Below are positions 3,024 through 54,653 of a stretch of DNA of 64,000 nucleotides, piece by piece. Source of the DNA: Patescibacteria group bacterium (GTDB lineage Bacteria > Patescibacteriota > Kazan-3B-28); contig JAQUNP010000002.1 of the NCBI GenBank assembly GCA_028717565.1, positions 26,054-90,053 on the forward strand, in the 5' to 3' direction. Under the pieces are notes generated by a model. The model saw only the letters and a program-made list of their open reading frames with translations. It did not search any database and had not been told where the DNA came from. How positions within the stretch are numbered: position 1 is the first letter of the stretch; each line of letters starts with the position of its first letter. The translations under genes were made by a program, and so were the position numbers.

Positions 3024-3052
3024 TTGACACAAAAACAGGCCTCGTACATAAT
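3024..3052 (+). promoter_or_regulatory. Sigma70-like promoter upstream of the rplK leader
   Basis: TTGACA (3024-3029), 17-nt spacer, CATAAT (3047-3052). The first ATG of the leader lies 10 nt downstream. Confidence 0.6.
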
Positions 3053-3061
3053 ATCCCTTGT

Positions 3062-3208
3062 TATGCCCTGTAGAGAATTTTAGAATGATTATCTAGATTT
3101 TACTTTTTCAGGGACATAGCCATGTTAGTGAAAGGTTGTTATCAGTTTGGAATTGTCGTGAATTTACGATAATCAGGTAAAATTTTCTAAAATCTTCTAC
3201 AGGGTATG
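3062..3208 (+). promoter_or_regulatory. Structured leader element copy 1 (mini-ORF MPCREF plus long hairpin) ending in the rplK start codon
   Basis: The 5' arm TATGCCCTGTAGAGAATTTTAGAA pairs with the 3' arm TTCTAAAATCTTCTACAGGGTATG (about 24 bp, one A.C mismatch). The inner stem is TGATTATC/GATAATCA. The same termini occur at 21115-21254 and 24328-24468. Confidence 0.7.
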
Positions 3209-7547: not shown

Positions 7548-7664
7548 CACAAAATGTTAACCAAAAACCAAAATCGTCCTTTCTGGATTTAACCGCAAAC
7601 TCGCCCAAGGGCTCAGACATGCTCATCCAGATCGGACGATTTTGCTATTGGTGGACACATTTTG
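7548..7664. repeat. R1a: short, divergent member of the R1 long-hairpin family
   Basis: Nested stems CAAAATGT/ACATTTTG, CAAAATCGTCC/GGACGATTTTG and TCTGGAT/ATCCAGA. The core is GCAAACTC-[GCCCaaGGGC]-TCAGACATGC, as in R1b and R1c. Confidence 0.6.
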
Positions 7665-7718: not shown

Positions 7719-8816
7719 ATGAGTATTGGGTTTGAGATAAAAAATCGAGACGGGAAGGCGCGTAGCGGAGTAATCACAACGGGACATGGAAGTATGCGAA
7801 CTCCCTTGATAACGGTGAACTTTACGCCAGCGTTGTTACGCTCTGGGCTTAAACCCAGTGACGTGAAAGAGTTGGGCAGTGAATTAATATTGGTAAATAC
7901 TTTGCATGCATATTTGAGTGGGATGCGAGATGTGCATGAGGACTTGGGGTGGGAGGGGCCAGTGTTAGCTGATTCGGGCGGTTTTCAAATGATTTCGTTG
8001 GCAGATAAAATGGGCGCCACTGCCGAAGGTGTGGAGTTTGAAATTAACGGCGAGGCGCATTTTTTTGATCCTAAAAAAGTTTTGGAGATTCAAAGAAGTA
8101 TAGGGGTTGATATGATGATGCCGTTGGACTATGTGGTAAGTGTGCGTACGCATTCGCTTGCACTTTTTTTGACATCGGTAACCCAAACACGACTTTGGTT
8201 TGGGCAGGCAGCACTAACGGGTACGGAAAATTTGTACTACATTGTGCAAGGAGGCACTAGTAGCGTGGCTCGGTGGCTATCGGTTAAGGATGCGAACAGA
8301 TGGCTGCGTGCGGGAGTGGAAGCGGTGGCTTTGGGAGGTATTTCCTTGGGCGAGACCAAGCAAGAGATCTACGATACGGTTAAGTTTTGCTGTGATCGCT
8401 TAGTAGAAGACAGACCTCGGCATTTGCTAGGAGTGGGAGATCCGGAAGATTTGCTAGAGTGTGTAGAGCGAGGGATTGATACTTTTGATTGTGTATCGAC
8501 AACTCGTCTGGCTCGGCATGGGCGAGTGTGGACTTTTGGCGGAGTATTACGTTTGCGGCAGGAGCAATTTGGGCGTGATCAGAGTGTGCTGGAGCCGGGC
8601 TGTGATTGCCCGACGTGTCGAGCAGGCGAAAGCCGCGCTGCTTTGCGTGAAGGGTTGCGAGATGTAAATGAGGCAGTGGTTCGAGAAACCAAGTTGAAAT
8701 TAATGAAACACAATATTCGGTTTGTGAATCGGTTAATGGAAGGCATAAGGCAGGCGATAGAAGTGGGTGAGTTGGCCAAGTTTAAGGCCGAGTTTTTGGC
8801 GATATATAAAAGGTAG
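7719..8816 (+). CDS. tgt: tRNA-guanine transglycosylase (queuine/preQ1 tRNA-ribosyltransferase family)
   Basis: Motifs LADSGGFQ, VQGG, LGGISLGE, LLGVGDPEDL, FDCVSTTRLARHG and the zinc site CDCPTC. Confidence 0.88.
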   Translation: MSIGFEIKNRDGKARSGVITTGHGSMRTPLITVNFTPALLRSGLKPSDVKELGSELILVNTLHAYLSGMRDVHEDLGWEGPVLADSGGFQMISLADKMGATAEGVEFEINGEAHFFDPKKVLEIQRSIGVDMMMPLDYVVSVRTHSLALFLTSVTQTRLWFGQAALTGTENLYYIVQGGTSSVARWLSVKDANRWLRAGVEAVALGGISLGETKQEIYDTVKFCCDRLVEDRPRHLLGVGDPEDLLECVERGIDTFDCVSTTRLARHGRVWTFGGVLRLRQEQFGRDQSVLEPGCDCPTCRAGESRAALREGLRDVNEAVVRETKLKLMKHNIRFVNRLMEGIRQAIEVGELAKFKAEFLAIYKR

Positions 8817-14305: not shown

Positions 14306-15655
14306 TTATTCTAATCCAGTTTCCTCTGAGCCACCCAAACCGCTTCGTAGCGGGCTGGCACCAGCGCCAGCTTCATCTTTGGGTTTACCAGTCACGAAGA
14401 GGTCAACAATCAGCTGCCCAATTTTTTTGAAGGCGCTGTCCTTTTTGATTACGGTGCCATCTTCCAAAGTAGTGGTAGAGCCGACAAAGATCTCTTTCAC
14501 GTCTTTTACTACCTGGCTCATGCCGAGAGTAACTTTCGTCACGGCGCGTTGGAAGGTGCTAGCGGTAGTGGTATTAAGAATGGTTTGAACCTGCTCTTCG
14601 GAAACGTAAGAACTTTGGTTTTGGGTCTGGGCGGTATTTTTGATTTGAGTTTGAGCAAAGGCATCAAGGGCTTCGCTAACAGATTCTTGAGTGGAGGTTT
14701 TGTCTGCCTCGGCTGGAGGAATGTACTGATACCAGTCTGGTTCGGTCTCATCCTCTGGTGCACCAGGGTAGTCCTCGTCTTGTTTTTGAGGAGTGGTAGC
14801 AGTCGGGGCGGCAATTGTCTTAGGCGCTTCCTCGACGCTAATAGTAGCCACAGCGCTAGCGCCGTTGGCTTTGACCTGTACCTGAACGACACCCTTTTTG
14901 ACACCAGTAATTTCACCTGTGGTTTTGTTGATGGTGGCGTTATCACTACCCGAGACAATGCTCCAGGTTTTAGAAACATTCTGGATTTCCTTGCCAGTGC
15001 TGTCCAAGGCGATAACGGAGAAGGAGCGGGTTTGGCCGATGGCTACCTTGGCAGTAGTTGGAACCAAATAAAGAGTAGCGACTGATGGGGGGGTGTAGCT
15101 GGAGTCGCTGCCAGCATAATTGACAAGCTTACTAACAGTGTCGCCGCCATGAATGGCGATATTGATAGTAGAGGCATTACTCAAGGCAATAGGACCTAAG
15201 GGGGAGTTGACGGCGATACCGTTAACGGTAGCACCCGTAAAAGAACCGTGCAGGTAGAAAGTGCCTGACACGGGTTGGTCTAGAACAATACTCAGGGTGT
15301 AGGTTTGGCCAAGAGTTTGGCCTTTGGTCCCAGCGGAGGTTTGAGAGAGGTTGCTGGGGGACCAGCCAGAACGGACGGAATACAGTCCGCTAGCTTGGCC
15401 GGCAGCGAAGTTTAAGCCGCCGTATTCAACACCCTTGATGAAAAAGCCCTCTTCACCCCAGGCAGCACTCCAAGAGTTGGCAACTTGGACGTCGCCAGGT
15501 TCCAGGGCAGTGCTGGCATAAGAGAAGCCGACTACAAATCCTAACATTAAAAGCAACGCGAGCGACATTTCTAGCTCACGCTTTATGAAATCTACAACTT
15601 TGTGCCACAAGGACACCTTCCCCCGCTTTTTGGAAACTTTCTTTCTATTTTTCAT
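14306..15655 (-). CDS. Membrane-anchored surface protein with a Big_2-like Ig domain
   Basis: N-terminal KKRGK plus a TM helix. The Big_2-like segment is AKVAIGQTRSFSVIALDSTGKEIQNVSKTWSIVSGSDNATINKTTGEITGVKKGVVQVQV. The C-terminal half is low-complexity. Confidence 0.65.
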   Translation of the reverse strand: MKNRKKVSKKRGKVSLWHKVVDFIKRELEMSLALLLMLGFVVGFSYASTALEPGDVQVANSWSAAWGEEGFFIKGVEYGGLNFAAGQASGLYSVRSGWSPSNLSQTSAGTKGQTLGQTYTLSIVLDQPVSGTFYLHGSFTGATVNGIAVNSPLGPIALSNASTINIAIHGGDTVSKLVNYAGSDSSYTPPSVATLYLVPTTAKVAIGQTRSFSVIALDSTGKEIQNVSKTWSIVSGSDNATINKTTGEITGVKKGVVQVQVKANGASAVATISVEEAPKTIAAPTATTPQKQDEDYPGAPEDETEPDWYQYIPPAEADKTSTQESVSEALDAFAQTQIKNTAQTQNQSSYVSEEQVQTILNTTTASTFQRAVTKVTLGMSQVVKDVKEIFVGSTTTLEDGTVIKKDSAFKKIGQLIVDLFVTGKPKDEAGAGASPLRSGLGGSEETGLE

Positions 15656-19386: not shown

Positions 19387-21078
19387 TTGATGATAATTGC
19401 CACAAAATCACAAACGCGCTGGATAGTGCCGGAAATTAACGAGCCGCCCCAGGAGCTTGGCGTTGAGGATTTTGTGTTAGCCCAACTTTTGTTGCAGAGG
19501 GGAATATTAACGCGAACGGAGGCCGAGAAGTTTTTGGACCCTAATCTAGCGGATTTGGCTGACCCGTTACTTTTGGATGGGATGGCGGAAGCGACTAAGC
19601 GTATCAAGCGCGCGGTGGCGGTCGGTGAGAAGATTACCATATATGGCGACTACGATGTGGACGGTGTAACCTCGGCTACATTGTTACGCCAGTGTCTAGC
19701 GGAGCTGGGGGCAGAGGCCGAAGTGTATTTGCCAGAGCGTACGACGGAGGGCTATGGCATCAATAAAGAAGCGGTTGAGCGGTTGGCGGCTCAAGGGACT
19801 AGCTTAATGATATCGGTGGATACGGGGACTACGGCAGTGGCAGAGATTGCTTTGGCCAAAGCACTGGGGATGGATGTAATCGTAGTTGATCATCATCATG
19901 TTCCCTCAACTTTGCCAGATGCGTTAGCGGTTATTAATCCGCATCGACCAGGTCAGGCCTATCCTTGTAGCGATTTGGCAGCAGTAGGGGTGACGTACCG
20001 TCTGGCATGTGCGCTGGTGGGTGACAAGGCCAACCAGTGGCTCGACTTGGTGGCACTAGGCACAGTGGCAGACGTGGTGCCGCTAGTGGGCGAGAACAGG
20101 ACACTTACAGTTTTTGGCTTGATGGCTTTAAACCAAACTGCCAACATTGGAATCCGAGCACTGGTGGATGTAGCCGGTTTGGCCGACAAGAAACTCGAGG
20201 TGTACCATATTGGTTTTCAGCTAGGGCCACGCCTTAATGCAGCCGGCAGGATTGATCACGCGTCGGTGGCGTATCAGCTTTTAAATACCGCTGATGTGGC
20301 TAAGGCACATGCATTAGCCAAAGAGCTGAATGCATTGAATGCTAGGCGTCAGGAGATGACGGATAATATTTTGAAAAGTGCATGTACGCTAGAACGGCAG
20401 TGGGCGAATGAAAAAATGATTATTGTCGAAAATGAGGGCTGGTCAGTAGGTGTAGTGGGGATTGTAGCAGGCCGGTTGGTGGAAAAATATTCTAAACCGG
20501 CGATAGTTTTTGAGCAACAAGACGATGTTTTGAAGGGCTCAGCCAGAAGTGTGGATGGCGTGCACATTGTGGAGCTGCTGGATGAGGTGGCAGAGTGGCT
20601 GGTCGGTTATGGTGGACATGCCAAGGCGGCTGGAATTACGGTGGCGAAGACGAATTACGATAAGTTCAAGCGGGCCTTGTTGCAAGTGGCTCATGATAAG
20701 ATTGATGAAAATTGTTTAAGTCCGTCTGTTAATGTGGCGTTGACATTGGATGTTGGTCTAGTGACTGATCGGTTGTTGGCGACGGTGGAGCAGATGGCGC
20801 CCTTTGGTTTTGGTAATCCAACACCGGTGTTTGGTGTAGAGGGTGTTACTCTAGAGAAAATTGACACCTTTGGTTTCGGCTCAACATTGATTAAAATGAT
20901 GTTCAAAGACACGCAAGGCAAGGCGACTGATGTGATAGGTTTTGATAAAGACGGTGAACTCTTGTTGCGATTGACTAGGGGCCAGAAATATAATGTGGCA
21001 TTTACAATGTCAATAAATGAGTTCAAGGGGAAACGGTTTCGTCAGCAGAAGTTGGTGGACTTGCAGACAGCAGTTTAG
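19387..21078 (+). CDS. recJ: Single-stranded-DNA-specific exonuclease RecJ
   Basis: DHH-family motifs IYGDYDVDGVTS, SVDTG, VVDHHH and GGHAKAAG. The start is TTG 19387 or ATG 19390. Confidence 0.88.
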   Translation: MMIIATKSQTRWIVPEINEPPQELGVEDFVLAQLLLQRGILTRTEAEKFLDPNLADLADPLLLDGMAEATKRIKRAVAVGEKITIYGDYDVDGVTSATLLRQCLAELGAEAEVYLPERTTEGYGINKEAVERLAAQGTSLMISVDTGTTAVAEIALAKALGMDVIVVDHHHVPSTLPDALAVINPHRPGQAYPCSDLAAVGVTYRLACALVGDKANQWLDLVALGTVADVVPLVGENRTLTVFGLMALNQTANIGIRALVDVAGLADKKLEVYHIGFQLGPRLNAAGRIDHASVAYQLLNTADVAKAHALAKELNALNARRQEMTDNILKSACTLERQWANEKMIIVENEGWSVGVVGIVAGRLVEKYSKPAIVFEQQDDVLKGSARSVDGVHIVELLDEVAEWLVGYGGHAKAAGITVAKTNYDKFKRALLQVAHDKIDENCLSPSVNVALTLDVGLVTDRLLATVEQMAPFGFGNPTPVFGVEGVTLEKIDTFGFGSTLIKMMFKDTQGKATDVIGFDKDGELLLRLTRGQKYNVAFTMSINEFKGKRFRQQKLVDLQTAV

Positions 21079-21114
21079 ATTTTTCTTGAGCCCTTATATA
21101 TAATGATGAGAGAG

Positions 21115-21254
21115 TATGCCCCGTAGAGAATTTTAGAATGATTGCTGAAGATGTACTCTTAGACGGGCATGGGGGTGTAGAGACGGAGGTTTTTATAGCT
21201 GTGCATGAGAATGACAATCAAATAAAATTTTTCTAAAATCTTCTACAGGGTATG
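21115..21254 (+). promoter_or_regulatory. Structured leader element copy 2 (mini-ORF MPRREF) ending in the hisS start codon
   Basis: Same termini as copy 1 (TATGCCCCGTAGAGAATTTTAGAA ... TTCTAAAATCTTCTACAGGGTATG). Inner stem TGATTG/CAATCA. TATAAT at 21099-21104. Confidence 0.7.
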
Positions 21255-22529
21255 AAGGGTAAATTTCAAAAACCCAGGGGGACACAGGATATTTTGCCAT
21301 TGGAGCAAAAGTACTGGTTTTGGATAGAAGACAATTTCCGGGCTGTAATGACTGCGGCCGGTTTTGGACGCATTATTTTTCCTACGTTTGAGGACACGGC
21401 CTTGTTCTCTAGAAGCGTGGGTGAGGAAACGGATATTGTGGCCAAGGAAATGTACACTTTTGCAGATCGTGGTAAAAATTCTTTGACCCTACGTCCGGAA
21501 GGCACTGCCGGTGTGGCGCGGGCGTATATCGAGAACGGTATGCATAAAGAGCCACAGCCGGTGAAGCTGTATTATTTCGGCCCGATGTTTAGATACGATC
21601 GTCCGCAGGCCGGTCGTTATCGGGAGTTTTATCAAGGTGGGGCAGAGCTGTTTGGTGAAGAGGATCCGATTGTGGATGCGCAGATGATTGCAGTAATGAT
21701 TAAATTTTACAAGAAGCTGGGTTTGAAAAATTTGGTGGTACAGATTAATAGCATTGGTGACGCCAAGGGTAGACCCAAGCTAGAGAAAGCGCTGGTGGAC
21801 TTTTTGTCGGCGCATAGACGTCAACTTTCAGCTGAATCCAAGCGACGTTTGGCAAAAAACCCATTGCGAGTTTTGGACTCGAAGGAAAAAGAAGATCAGG
21901 CCATTGCCGACGAAGCTGGCGGGGTATTGTTGGACAATCTTAGCAAGGAATCTAAAACGTACTTCACTAAGGTCTTGGAGTATCTGGACGATATGGGTGT
22001 GAAGTACGAACTTAACCCCCGTCTGGTGAGAGGTCTGGATTACTATACGCATACAGTTTTTGAAATCATTGATGCTAGTACCGGCTTGGCGCTGGGTGGT
22101 GGCGGACGCTACGATGGTTTGATGAAGATTTTGGGTGGACCTGATACACCGGCGGTGGGCTGGGCGTTGGGAGTAGAACGAACTATAGATTGTCTCAAAA
22201 AACAGAAGGTGGATGTGCCAGAGGGTCCGAGTGTGGATGTATTTGTTATCCAGTTGGGTGATGAGGCCAAAAAGAAAGCCATTCGGGTGATTGATGAATT
22301 GGATGAGGCGGGTTATAGCGTTGGCCATGCACTAGGACGGGACAGTATCAAGGCGCAGCTCAGGGTGGCTGACAGGAACCAAGCTCGATTGGCGGTGATT
22401 TTGGGTGAGCGGGAAGTACATGACAAATCTGCTATTATTCGCGATTTGTCAGATGGTTCGCAAGAATCAGTGGCAGATAAATCGCTGTCGGCGGCAGTAG
22501 GACGTAAGCTGAAGGAGAAGAAAAAATAA
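21252..22529 (+). CDS. hisS: Histidine--tRNA ligase
   Basis: Class II motifs: RGTQDILP, LRPEGTAGVARAY, FRYDRPQAGRYREF and GGGRYDGL. Confidence 0.92.
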   Translation: MKGKFQKPRGTQDILPLEQKYWFWIEDNFRAVMTAAGFGRIIFPTFEDTALFSRSVGEETDIVAKEMYTFADRGKNSLTLRPEGTAGVARAYIENGMHKEPQPVKLYYFGPMFRYDRPQAGRYREFYQGGAELFGEEDPIVDAQMIAVMIKFYKKLGLKNLVVQINSIGDAKGRPKLEKALVDFLSAHRRQLSAESKRRLAKNPLRVLDSKEKEDQAIADEAGGVLLDNLSKESKTYFTKVLEYLDDMGVKYELNPRLVRGLDYYTHTVFEIIDASTGLALGGGGRYDGLMKILGGPDTPAVGWALGVERTIDCLKKQKVDVPEGPSVDVFVIQLGDEAKKKAIRVIDELDEAGYSVGHALGRDSIKAQLRVADRNQARLAVILGEREVHDKSAIIRDLSDGSQESVADKSLSAAVGRKLKEKKK

Positions 22530-23966: not shown

Positions 23967-24296
23967 GTGGAGGATAGTATTTTTTTCAAATTTGCGACTG
24001 GGGAATTAAGACCGGATACGGTCAGATATGAGGACGAGGAGCTGCTGGCGTTTGATGATATTCATCCAGACGCTCCTATCCATATCTTGGTCATCCCGAA
24101 AAAGCCGATTCAAAGTGTGGCCGACATGACACAGGAGGACGCTGCAATAGTGGGCAAGATGATATTGCTAACTAAGAAATTAGCGGAGGAGATGGGGGTA
24201 GCCGAATCTGGCTATAAGGTGACTTTTAACGTCAGGGAGGGGGGAGGGCAGATTATTCCCTATCTACACCTGCATTTGCTGGCAAATAAACCTTGA
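23967..24296 (+). CDS. HIT-family nucleotide hydrolase
   Basis: GTG start. The C-terminus carries the HLHLHLL histidine triad; 109 aa. Confidence 0.85.
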   Translation: MEDSIFFKFATGELRPDTVRYEDEELLAFDDIHPDAPIHILVIPKKPIQSVADMTQEDAAIVGKMILLTKKLAEEMGVAESGYKVTFNVREGGGQIIPYLHLHLLANKP

Positions 24297-24321
24297 TTAA
24301 TACATAAGAATCCGCTATAGT
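24293..24321 (+). promoter_or_regulatory. Promoter upstream of the rpsU leader
   Basis: TTGATT-17-TATAGT. The first ATG of the leader is 7 nt downstream (near-leaderless geometry). Confidence 0.6.
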
Positions 24322-24327
24322 TCTACC

Positions 24328-24468
24328 TATGCCCTGTAGAGAATTTTAGAATAATCAGCTGGAATGCCCCGCTTTTATTGCTAAATACTTTACGAACGGG
24401 CTGCAATGGGCCGGTGGGTTTGACGGCTGATCACAAATAACATTTTCTAAAATCTTCTAAAGGGTATG
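24328..24468 (+). promoter_or_regulatory. Structured leader element copy 3 (mini-ORF MPCREF) ending in the rpsU start codon
   Basis: TATGCCCTGTAGAGAATTTTAGAA ... TTCTAAAATCTTCTAAAGGGTATG. Inner stem ATCAGC/GCTGAT. Confidence 0.7.
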
Positions 24469-42195: not shown

Positions 42196-42311
42196 GTAAT
42201 GAGGGAAGAACGAGGTATGTTCTCCCCTCATCGGCGGTTGGCAGAAGCCAATCCTCGCATGTGCTCGGACTAGCCGCCTGCTTCTCTCTCCACCATTTTT
42301 AAAATATTTTT

Positions 42312-52309: not shown

Positions 52310-52412
52310 GACAGGAGCCCCGAAGCTTAAAACACTTCGGGAGCTCCTGTCCCCAACCTTGGTCACCAATTATCGCTCCCCCCAGGTGATAATCTGATGA
52401 CCAAGGTTGGGG
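52310..52412 (+). terminator. Two consecutive long hairpins after the PKD gene
   Basis: GACAGGAGCCCCGAAG ..9.. CTTCGGGAGCTCCTGTC, then CCCCAACCTTGGTCA ..32.. TGACCAAGGTTGGGG (15 bp perfect). There is no U-run. Confidence 0.45.
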
Positions 52413-52445
52413 ACACACACATATATAACTCAAGGGGTAAAGATT

Positions 52446-54653
52446 ATGAAGAATTTGCTGAAGGCCATTGGCCGAAAGACCTACTTTAGTTTAAAAAGAT
52501 TCGCTCGTGCGATTCGGTCTTTGAATATATTAACTTTTAGCGCTGTCTTTTTGGCTAGCGTTTTGGTGCCGTCTGCTGTTGTGGCTGAGGGCGACTTTGT
52601 ACGGGCGACGGTTACACCGTCTAGCTCAACTATTGAGCTGGGCCAGAGCAAGACCTTTTCAGTTATCACCAAGCTCAATGGTGTGACTACTACTGCTGAT
52701 AGCATCAATTGGTTTGTGAACAGTGCCCCGCAAAGTGGCACCACTTCAATGACCTACACGCCGGCTACGACAGGTGATTATCAGATACGGGCGAATGTTA
52801 CCAAGAATGGTATTGCCACTAGCTCCCAAGCCACTTTAAAAGTGACTGCGGCCGCGGATGATGATACTGATGAGCCAGAAGACGATGATGGCGATACCAG
52901 CGACCCGATTTATGTTCGAGCGGTAGTTACCCCGACTAGCTCAACAATTACTCAAGGTGAAAGCAAGACCTTTAGCGTGGTTGTAAAGAAGAACGGTAAT
53001 GTGACTGATGCTGATAGCATCAACTGGTTTGTGGATGGCGGAGCTCAAGCTAGCTACCAAAACCTCGTTCACATGACCTTGTCCCCAAGTGCTGGAACTT
53101 ACAGTATTCGAGTAAACGTGGTGGAAGAGGGCACGCCGGCTGTTAGTTATGCGACTTTAAAGGTTCTGCCAGCTAGCGACGACCCAGATCCCGACCCTGA
53201 CCCGGATCCTGATCCGGTTGTGGATGACTACTTAAGAGCGGTGATTACTCCAACTAGCTCAACTATTACTCAAGGTGAAACCAAGACCTTCAATTTGATT
53301 AGCAAGTTAAATGGCCTCACTACTACTCCAGACACAATTAAGTGGTTTGTAGACAACGATGAGCAAACCAGCTTCAGCGGCAAGAGCTATCTGACTCTGT
53401 CTCCAGCTAATGTGGGCACATACTACATTAGAGCCCTGGTGACCAAGACCGGTGCGAATGTGGCTCAATCCTATGCCACGTTGATTGTGAAAGCTGGTAC
53501 TACTCCTCCTGAGCCGCCAACCGAGGATTTCGTGAGAGCGGTGATTACTCCAACCAGCTCAACGGTGACGGTGGGTACATCCAAAACCTTTAATCTAATT
53601 ACTAAATTAAATGGCTATACCCACACAGCCGATACGATTCGCTGGTATGTGGATGGTGCGTTGCAAGCTAGTGCCAATGACCATACCTACATTACCTTGA
53701 ATCGTCCGGTGGGCACCTACAGCATTAATGCCAAGGCCTGGATCAACAGTGCGATGGGTCAAGACACGGCGACCTTGATCGTAAAAGATGTGGTGATTAC
53801 TGAACCGGATGACATTGAAGTAGTGATTATTCCGGATTTGAGAAGTGTGGGAACTTATGAAGAGACCAGTTACCGCGCTGTAGTTTACGACGAAAGCGGT
53901 GCGGACGTGACTGACGAGACCACGCTTGACTGGAGCATTTTAGATGGCAACGCTCTGATTTTGAGCGAAAACCATGACGATTTGCGGGTTCAGTCACGTG
54001 GCAACACTGGTACATTCGAAGACATCTACGTCTATGCTAGCCGCAATGGCAAGCACGACAGTGATAAGGCCTACTTGCAGGTGACTAGCGGATACACTCC
54101 GCCAACGCCAACTTGCGAGTACTACCTAACCGCGACTATGCATGGTGTGATTGAGGACGGCAGCTCTCCAAGTGCTGGTGATATTATTAAGTACACCGTC
54201 AAGGTGAACAACTACCGTCCATGCACACTGCATAATGTTAATCTAAAGATTGCTGTGCCACCTGCCCACACAACCTTTGTTGATACCAACTCAGCTTATG
54301 GCACACCGTATCTGTCTGGTGGCTACATCTACTGGAATGCGGGTACCTTGGTCAGCGGTCAAGAAAAAACGATGACTTTCCGAGTGAAGATCAACAGTGG
54401 CGTTCCGAAGGAAGGTTGGTATATCACGGCTTATGGTAGTGCTGGTGCGAGCGAGATCTCTACCTTCAACATCCAATCCAATACCATCTATGTACCGGGT
54501 ACAACCACTCCGATTACTCCGGATCTACCAAAGACAGGTGTGGACTGGATCGTGTTGCTTTTGATCACTTTGTCTTCACTGGGCTTAGCTACATTGACCT
54601 ATGCTGGGATGTATTCCCGCAAGCTGCAACGCGAAAGAATAGGTTACTTATAA
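52446..54653 (+). CDS. LPXTG-anchored surface protein with four tandem ~95-aa Ig-like repeats and a DUF11/CARDB-like domain
   Basis: AAGGGG SD and a signal/TM segment. Repeats begin (D/I/Y/F)(F/Y/L)VRA.(V/I)TP(S/T)SSTI. Linkers are acidic or PD-repeat. C-terminus: LPKTG (54525-54539), a hydrophobic helix, then RKLQRER. Confidence 0.8.
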   Translation: MKNLLKAIGRKTYFSLKRFARAIRSLNILTFSAVFLASVLVPSAVVAEGDFVRATVTPSSSTIELGQSKTFSVITKLNGVTTTADSINWFVNSAPQSGTTSMTYTPATTGDYQIRANVTKNGIATSSQATLKVTAAADDDTDEPEDDDGDTSDPIYVRAVVTPTSSTITQGESKTFSVVVKKNGNVTDADSINWFVDGGAQASYQNLVHMTLSPSAGTYSIRVNVVEEGTPAVSYATLKVLPASDDPDPDPDPDPDPVVDDYLRAVITPTSSTITQGETKTFNLISKLNGLTTTPDTIKWFVDNDEQTSFSGKSYLTLSPANVGTYYIRALVTKTGANVAQSYATLIVKAGTTPPEPPTEDFVRAVITPTSSTVTVGTSKTFNLITKLNGYTHTADTIRWYVDGALQASANDHTYITLNRPVGTYSINAKAWINSAMGQDTATLIVKDVVITEPDDIEVVIIPDLRSVGTYEETSYRAVVYDESGADVTDETTLDWSILDGNALILSENHDDLRVQSRGNTGTFEDIYVYASRNGKHDSDKAYLQVTSGYTPPTPTCEYYLTATMHGVIEDGSSPSAGDIIKYTVKVNNYRPCTLHNVNLKIAVPPAHTTFVDTNSAYGTPYLSGGYIYWNAGTLVSGQEKTMTFRVKINSGVPKEGWYITAYGSAGASEISTFNIQSNTIYVPGTTTPITPDLPKTGVDWIVLLLITLSSLGLATLTYAGMYSRKLQRERIGYL

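Follow-up and report, generated by a model that had tools for sequence, protein, structure and literature searches.

In the 64-kb stretch of Patescibacteria DNA analysed here (termed the window), the histidyl-tRNA synthetase gene hisS follows recJ and is preceded by a hairpin-forming element that ends exactly at the hisS start codon (Table 1). The element proper, copy 2 of the three in the window, spans positions 21119-21250, or 21115-21254 together with its flanking 4-bp duplications. The recJ-hisS order is kept in the retrieved loci L019, L021, L022, L060 and L061 (L-numbers label such loci), and the HisS N-terminus M-x-x-K-F-Q-K-P-R-G aligns from the second ATG (ATG#2) with relatives that lack the element. 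An earlier note on this DNA had interpreted the element as a leader that links hisS with two ribosomal-protein operons. On re-reading, its positions for the TATAAT box, the first ATG (ATG#1), the mini-open reading frame (mini-ORF) and the hisS ATG, which forms the last three nucleotides of the element, proved exact. The observation is confirmed and the interpretation partly supported: the architecture of a -10 box just upstream of a hairpin ending at the start codon holds, whereas a shared regulatory leader is contradicted by variable target-site duplications (TSDs), empty orthologous sites and the occupation of unrelated genes. The "leader" is very probably a copy of a miniature inverted-repeat transposable element (MITE) of Kazan-like Patescibacteria, with the hisS start codon rebuilt by the 4-bp duplication, and not a regulatory leader. 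Observed directly are the inverted repeats with their duplication, precise empty sites in relatives, the occupation of unrelated genes, and different subfamilies at the hisS site.

Table 1. Features of the hisS locus and the two other element copies in the window
Feature	Position	Strand	Evidence or remark
recJ, gene 5' of hisS	19387..21078	+	Pfam DHH, DHHA1, RecJ_OB; stop TAG 21076-21078
hisS native -10 box TATAAT	21099..21104	+	20 nt past recJ TAG, 11 nt before ATG#1
Left TSD copy TATG, holds ATG#1 (21116-21118)	21115..21118		Matching 4-mers flank 12/13 copies, differing by site
Mini-ORF ATG CCC CGT AGA GAA TTT TAG (MPRREF, then stop)	21116..21136	+	Inside left terminal repeat; peptide not conserved
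Left terminal inverted repeat CCCCGTAGAGAATTTTAGAA	21119..21138		Terminal-repeat comparison among copies
Inner stem 5' strand TGATTG, flush with left repeat	21139..21144	+	P=0.012 vs shuffles; covaries among copies
Apical interior, fast-evolving, subfamily A	21145..21214	+	Homologous to copy 1, L059, L067 (z 5.4-7.9)
Inner stem 3' strand CAATCA	21215..21220	+	Pairs with TGATTG
A/T-rich unpaired linker AATAAAATTT, right side only	21221..21230	+	9-17 nt in nine copies with significant flush stem
Right terminal inverted repeat TTCTAAAATCTTCTACAGGG	21231..21250		Contains -10-like TAAAAT 21234-21239, 12 nt before hisS ATG
Right TSD copy TATG, holds hisS start ATG (21252-21254)	21251..21254		Duplication comparison
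hisS, histidyl-tRNA synthetase	21252..22529	+	Pfam tRNA-synt_His, HGTP_anticodon; homologues found
Copy 1, rplK start	3062..3208	+	TSD TATG 3062-3065 / 3205-3208; native promoter TTGACA-17-CATAAT 3024-3052
Copy 3, rpsU start	24328..24468	+	TSD TATG 24328-24331 / 24465-24468; native promoter TTGATT-17-TATAGT 24293-24321

Three exact matches were counted in the window for each of the 5' block ATGCCCYGTAGAGAATTTTAGAAT and the 3' block TTTCTAAAATCTTCTACAGGGTATG, with none expected from 100 shuffles; copy 2 does share its termini with copies 1 and 3, as had been noted. These repeated termini are 24-25 nt long and sit before rplK, hisS and rpsU (genes assigned by Pfam). Collections were searched with the repeat alone, the flanks being left out of the pattern, and ten copies beyond the window came from a metagenome scan, a fuzzy search of the retrieved loci and look-ups of orthologous loci. 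In total, 13 copies were found in seven assemblies: three in the window, two each in L035 and L046 (a and b), and one each in L019, L059, L067, L036, L041 and L054. All of them possess 20-bp imperfect terminal inverted repeats, CCCYGTAGAGAATTTTAGAA and TTCTAAAATCTTCTACRGGG. The element measures 102-149 bp excluding the duplications and has no transposase gene; the TATG-type copies hold only a six-codon ORF. The first bases are CCC in all 13 copies and the last GGG in 11, with L036 ending in CACG and L067 in AAGG. A perfect 4-bp direct duplication flanks 12 copies, and its sequence depends on the site: TATG at the three window copies, L019, L067, L035a and L036, TGGA at L041, L054 and L046b, CATA at L035b, and TTGA at L046a. 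Only L059 has an imperfect duplication (CATG/TATG). Inverted repeats bounded by a site-variable duplication are the signature of a cut-and-paste DNA transposon, and the small body without a gene therefore points to a MITE.

Comparison of orthologous loci revealed both filled and empty sites. The hisS site is empty in L022, L060 and L061 (HisS identity 72-73%), where TATAAT or TACAAT is followed by 10-12 nt, then TATG and the same HisS N-terminus; it is filled in L019 and L059 (HisS identity 83-89%). At rplK, the site is empty in L068 and L069 and filled in the window and L067. The L068 promoter region reads TTGACA-17-CATAAT-ATCTCTTGT-TATG-GCAAAA, which is the window sequence minus the element and one TATG; the junctions are CATAATATCTCTTGT-TATG-GCAAAA in L068 compared to CATAATATCCCTTGT-TATG[element]TATG-GCAAAG in the window. 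The rpsU site is empty in L019 and L060. The earlier note had counted absence of the element from orthologous loci in an unchanged gene context as evidence against an ancestral leader, and the empty hisS, rplK and rpsU sites present just that; the precise absence at hisS, together with different subfamilies in sister genomes, shows the element there to be inserted. Elsewhere the copies precede trxB (L036), PMM (L041, L054), lysS (L046b) and two membrane-protein genes (L035), all of them real genes. That rplK, hisS and rpsU all carry the element would come from insertion being preferred or tolerated at TATG start codons near a promoter, not from common regulation.

The arms and the interiors of the copies differ greatly in conservation. 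Four-fold synonymous sites among the compared genomes are saturated (27-42% identity); despite this, the hisS copies of the window and L019 are identical at 47 of 48 arm-plus-duplication positions. The interiors fall into one cluster with copies 1 and 2 of the window, L059-hisS and L067-rplK (z 5.4-7.9), and another with L019-hisS, L035a and L041 (z 5-6.7). Within the former, subfamily A, identity is 61-69%, reaching 69% between copy 1 and the L067 rplK copy. Copies 1 and 2, whose interiors had been called unrelated, align globally at z=6.1 against shuffles with ~60% identity, so this claim was wrong; copy 2 is GC-richer, as stated (0.43 vs 0.33). A hairpin of like build with other arms (ATCCCGTTCGAAATTTGC... 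/ ...AAGAATTTCTTACGGGATG; -34.6 kcal/mol) lies at L021:9961-10094, at the hisS start of an 85% relative, and is probably a third subfamily or a decayed copy. With two subfamilies at hisS in sister genomes and this third type in L021, the same site must have been hit or replaced repeatedly. The PMM start is likewise filled at the same nucleotide in two hosts (PMM 62% identical) by copies with unrelated interiors. Recent insertion would explain why the duplications are perfect even where no function is evident for the left copy.

Several shorter or degenerate relatives were also seen. An intergenic one after ftsZ (L019:10272-10445), CCCCGGTCGAGATTCTTAGAA-CCAGCG ... CGCTGG-TTAGCTGATAATCTCTCCAACGGGG, lies away from any start codon, and its duplication is not clear. 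A short ATG-CCC...GGG hairpin, TATGCCCAATAGGGCAT, sits just past a -10 box 5' of rpsU (L022:16619-16643), and another, ATGCCCGCTTGTGATAAGCGGGTG, lies on the minus strand of L046, ~30 nt downstream of copy L046a, just past a -10 box and in frame before greA. These two short hairpins may derive from the element family, by internal deletion or as footprints of excision. A stretch of 14 nt, TTCTACCTATGCCC, is common to L022 and window 24318-24334.

Among the nine distinct insertion sites, eight overlap a start codon, and the ninth (L046a) places the copy inside the TTGACA -35 box of the greA promoter. A -10-like hexamer lies 5-12 nt upstream at seven of the eight start-codon sites, the exception (L035b) being operon-internal. 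The TATG duplication rebuilds the ATG, and TGGA (site TA|TGGA) gives a new start GTG made of the last G of the element plus TG. Twelve of the 13 copies, and seven of the eight distinct start-codon sites, have the same orientation relative to the downstream gene. As the window supplies ~20 TATG start codons and 28 other intergenic TATG/CATA, the location of all three window copies at start codons has P ~0.07 if TATG is targeted and coding insertions are lethal. The case rests on the pooled eight of nine sites and the repeated use of hisS, rplK and PMM. If TATG is preferred and coding insertions are lost, the start-codon pattern may partly reflect survivorship instead of targeting.

The mini-ORF changes with the duplication. 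Its peptide is MPCREF in copies 1 and 3, MPRREF in copy 2, MPYREF, or MDPVENFR... in the TGGA type, in line with the earlier statement that the peptide is not conserved. In TGGA-type copies the duplication is offset by 2 nt, which opens another reading frame with a wholly different peptide. Constancy of the frame, the six-codon length and the TAG, also claimed before, applies to the TATG type, where it arises because the mini-ORF sits within the conserved terminal repeat, and breaks down in the TGGA type. The upstream ORF crosses the entire left arm in every copy.

As sense RNA, the three window copies fold into long hairpins (-43 to -48 kcal/mol, z -4.1 to -6.7; copy 2: -43 kcal/mol, z=-4.1), compared to -29 to -36 kcal/mol for the antisense strands. 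In 12 aligned copies the outer helix, which comprises 24 pairs (20 from the arm and four from the duplication), is 88.9% paired, with compensatory changes at three arm positions. Copy 2 has C instead of T at 21122, which makes codon 3 CGT and introduces a C.A mismatch into this helix, exactly as described before. An A.C non-pair is invariant and an adjacent G.U is present in 11 of the 12 copies; therefore the left and right ends are always distinguishable. A flush inner stem of 6-11 bp on the left is found in nine of the 12 copies with at least six different sequences (each P<=0.014 vs shuffles), so the covarying TGATTG/CAATCA stem of the earlier description is real. On the right, an A/T-rich unpaired linker of 9-17 nt separates the inner stem from the arm. 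All 12 copies examined have the flush stem on the left and the linker on the right, and none has a flipped interior. The inner stems of L035a and L041 have a mismatch that is A.C in sense RNA and would be G.U in antisense. Selection on pairing could act on RNA or DNA, and nothing favours sense RNA specifically.

At gathering thresholds, Rfam matched only tRNAs in the window, and a permissive scan of 21000-21350 gave chance matches alone (E>4) and no T-box, consistent with the reported lack of a T-box-like leader. Two other strong inverted repeats of the window, both upstream of genes, are unrelated to the element in sequence. The one at 52348-52415 precedes the gene at 52446 and pairs 21 nt at 95% complementarity around a 26-nt loop; the one at 7564-7649 precedes the gene at 7719 and pairs 25 nt at 84%.

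The native promoter block TATATAATGA(T/A) is kept in four element-bearing genomes (window, L019, L021 and L059), though four-fold sites are saturated. Its conservation suggests that transcription still starts at the native hisS promoter and runs through the hairpin. The right arm offers a second candidate, as its TAAAAT lies 12 nt before ATG or 10 nt before GTG; a promoter scan of copy 2 found ATGACA-17-TAAAAT at 21211-21239 (10/12 matches), and TAAAAT serves natively as a -10 box at 42300-42311. Its candidacy as a perfect leaderless promoter is weakened by the spacing of 12 nt, compared to 6-7 nt typical in the window. No terminator-like site or U-tract terminator is present at the three window copies. 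About half of the ~67 window genes have a Shine-Dalgarno-like motif, and ~20 instead have a TANNNT box 4-12 nt from the start, clearest at 6-7 nt (44442, 42312, 29073), a pattern suggesting that mRNAs of this Patescibacterium are often leaderless or have very short leaders. Altogether, 61 of the 67 genes lie on the plus strand, with a coding density of ~91%. The RNase III signature ERLEFLGD had no match in the examined sequence, which is uninformative for 64 kb of a genome.

We propose that the element inserted into the TATG holding the hisS start codon, a few nucleotides downstream of the hisS -10 box, by the action in trans of a transposase that would be of the IS1380/piggyBac-type DDE class, as the 4-bp duplication and CCC...GGG termini suggest. 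After the duplication, the ATG before the element opens a meaningless six-codon ORF, and the ATG behind it is the true hisS start. Insertion at essential genes would be tolerated by virtue of the rebuilt start codon and of expression that is not stopped. Transcription of hisS would begin at the native promoter and read through the hairpin, or begin at the outward TAAAAT of the right repeat, or at both, and the hairpin of the read-through transcript might be opened by translation from AUG#1 or cut by a double-stranded RNA nuclease. Translational bypass of the T4 gene 60 type was rejected: an in-frame TAA lies 18 nt before ATG#2, the take-off UUU has no in-frame landing codon, and the N-termini of L11, HisS and S21 align with relatives from ATG#2. 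Also rejected was a group I or other self-splicing intron, given the small size, the lack of a conserved interior core and boundaries unlike the U...G rules.

A number of points weigh against a plain MITE. No autonomous partner was found, and genome, metagenome and viral scans gave no repeat pair more than 160 bp apart. The exact arm pattern matched 17 times in 185,579 species genomes and four times in viral contigs, all single arms, mostly in coding sequences and at about the chance level; the family is therefore absent in exact form from representative genomes. The exact-pattern metagenome scan returned only MITE-sized repeat pairs and no transposase-bearing element. The window encodes no transposase either; a minus-strand ORF at 14309-15655 (449 aa) was considered and dismissed, having no Pfam match and being syntenic in relatives. 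The arms are far better conserved than neutral sites and have a fixed left/right asymmetry, and the inner stem covaries. The TAAAAT is 12 nt from the ATG, as against 6-7 nt in the clearest leaderless-type promoters of the window, and among the three window copies only copy 2 has a -35-like hexamer. The 24-bp stem would bury the hisS ATG in a read-through transcript, so that any mechanism of tolerance at essential genes is hypothetical. Finally, 12 of 13 copies share one orientation and eight of nine sites overlap a start codon. Arms, inner stem, orientation and siting together show more order than expected of a decaying passenger MITE, which suggests either that insertion has recurred recently with a strong choice of target or that selection at the level of the host acts on the hairpin.

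One alternative is that the hairpin originated as a MITE and now, when transcribed, serves promoter-proximal housekeeping genes of the leaderless type in the control or maturation of their 5' ends. A 70S ribosome loaded on the 5'-terminal AUG#1 could translate through the left arm and melt the 24-bp stem, so that AUG#2 and the A/U-rich linker become accessible, or RNase III could cut the long stem and release a short-leader mRNA; either way, expression of rplK, hisS and rpsU would be coupled to translation capacity or to RNase III. The arms near-identical across genomes with saturated synonymous sites, the essentially invariant tandem G.U/A.C, the covarying inner stem with an unpaired linker always on the start-codon side, the orientation bias, the native promoter kept upstream of the element and the better folding of the sense strand all agree with it, as does the precedent of Correia MITE hairpins, which are bound or cut by RNase III and carry promoters (PMC2649163). 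However, the orthologous genes of close relatives function with no element present, the upstream ORF is constant neither in frame nor in length (6 to ~30 codons), and the mismatches of L035a and L041 give no sign of sense-RNA-specific selection. Perfect duplications, including TGGA and TTGA with no obvious role for the left copy, would be expected of young insertions no less than under selection. We regard such exaptation as unlikely, and give no greater credence to the idea of a family specialised for the start sites of leaderless-type genes. There, the transposase may be guided to the promoter-proximal start site, for instance to the open complex, or the element may be "intron-like" and invisible to expression, the start codon being rebuilt by the duplication and the hairpin removed or opened by RNase III or 5'-AUG-loaded ribosomes to yield a translatable mRNA. 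If true, a bacterial MITE would act like a benign 5' intron at essential genes.

Far less probable than either is a non-mobile cis-regulatory leader or attenuator with a leader peptide common to hisS, rplK and rpsU. It would account for three copies before translation-related genes in one window, each with a mini-ORF of fixed frame and stop and with a strong hairpin that runs up to the start codon. It is opposed by flanking duplications that vary in sequence, by the precise empty sites at all three genes, by further copies at PMM, lysS, trxB and membrane-protein genes, one copy even interrupting a -35 box, and by the unconserved peptide without a U-tract terminator or an Rfam family. We consider equally remote a hairpin mobilised in single-stranded form by an enzyme other than a DDE transposase, in the manner of REPIN/RAYT or integron attC, and likewise a promoter segment that inverts between flanking inverted repeats. 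In favour of these stand the imperfect palindrome with variable centre and fixed unpaired bases, the GTAG motif in the arm, the inner stem that keeps its pairing without conserving its sequence and the position upstream of genes. Such systems give no site-variable TSDs, whereas 12 of the 13 copies have one; no attC R'/R'' core (GTTRRRY) is visible at the ends. The invertible promoter was rejected on the duplications, on the fixed polarity of all 12 interiors examined, and on the essential genes, at which phase variation is implausible. A MITE inserted at the start codon thus remains the favoured interpretation of the hisS element.

Automatic gene calls are affected at element sites, where gene callers make spurious N-terminal extensions and mini-genes. 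The HisS call P0003 (L021, 455 aa) carries a 30-aa false extension through the hairpin, and in a Logan assembly of the same strain (L001:1799-1897) a 32-aa "gene" is called inside the hisS element and the rpsU behind copy 3 is uncalled. Another palindromic repeat, GGATTCCCGC-N4-GCGGGAATCC, occurs in gene 5' regions of Kazan relatives (L022:16680-16705; L061:14568, 18633; L066:10071-10097), lying 5' of rpsU in L022 and of PMM in L066; its read-through yields a spurious "...VIPAEAGIQ..." N-terminal extension in the PMM proteins P0122 and P0128. Elsewhere in the window, a tRNA-Thr/Tyr/Thr cluster (2189-2566) is followed by a 106-aa ORF (2651-2971) with a Shine-Dalgarno motif and no Pfam match, directly before the rplK promoter. 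In many bacteria, tufA-secE-nusG occupies the position upstream of rplK.

Compared to known systems, the element resembles ribosomal-protein, T-box and attenuator leaders in its 5' position at rplK, rpsU and an aminoacyl-tRNA synthetase gene, its structured RNA and its short upstream ORF. It differs in lacking an Rfam match, orthologous conservation, a conserved peptide and a terminator, and in bearing the hallmarks of mobility. REP/REPIN sequences, mobilised by RAYT (a Y1 transposase), have no TSD, whereas the element has variable 4-bp duplications. Rickettsia palindromic elements are small palindromic mobile elements tolerated in or at housekeeping genes of a reduced genome (reviewed in PMC10969869). 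The likeness lies in the tolerance at essential housekeeping genes; they are however in frame within coding sequences and translated, whereas the present element precedes the first codon and an in-frame TAA in its right arm blocks read-in.

Correia elements (CREE/NEMIS) of Neisseria offer the closest functional parallel to the possible action of the hisS copy. They too are MITEs, of ~100-160 bp with inverted repeats of ~26 bp, and lie beside genes, with which they are co-transcribed. They cause a TA duplication, possess a conserved core and lie dispersed between genes, not on start codons. The element differs from them in its 4-bp duplication and in its host phylum. Correia elements can also generate promoters at either end, bind IHF and be bound or cleaved by RNase III, and so alter the expression of adjacent genes (PMC2649163). 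For the element, RNase III processing and an end promoter are consensus-level hints only (24-bp stem, TAAAAT).

The ends point towards another group. Duplications of 4 bp and 5'-CC..GG-3' termini are common to prokaryotic IS1380 and eukaryotic piggyBac (PMC10045372), and IS1380-derived MITEs share with the element (CCC...GGG) the 4-bp TSD, the CC...GG termini and short terminal inverted repeats. The piggyBac ends have spacers of 3 and 31 bp (PMC10140906), and the spacing of the internal repeat of the element, 0-2 nt on one side vs 9-17 nt on the other, recalls these unequal spacers; this repeat, whose sequence differs from copy to copy, is no fixed protein-binding site. The target of piggyBac proper is TTAA, in contrast to the TATG, TGGA, TTGA and CATA of the element. 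In the IS1380 family, ISEcp1 and other elements drive downstream genes from outward promoters. For the present element no transposase partner was found, its putative family assignment is taken from end features, and its insertion is near-exclusively at start codons.

Neither the literature searched nor a 2024 MITE review (PMC10969869) reports start-codon-specific MITEs or MITEs in Patescibacteria, and the element seems to represent a MITE family not described before, from candidate-phyla-radiation bacteria, in which mobile DNA has been little studied. A false lead is thereby removed, as the three shared leaders define no regulon of an aminoacyl-tRNA synthetase and ribosomal proteins. If the targeting or tolerance is mechanistic, it bears on the initiation of leaderless and short-leader mRNAs in reduced genomes and on transposon survival at such a high coding density. 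Overall, the element is ordinary as a MITE; unusual is that it sits on and regenerates the start codon of essential promoter-proximal genes, with strongly conserved arms.

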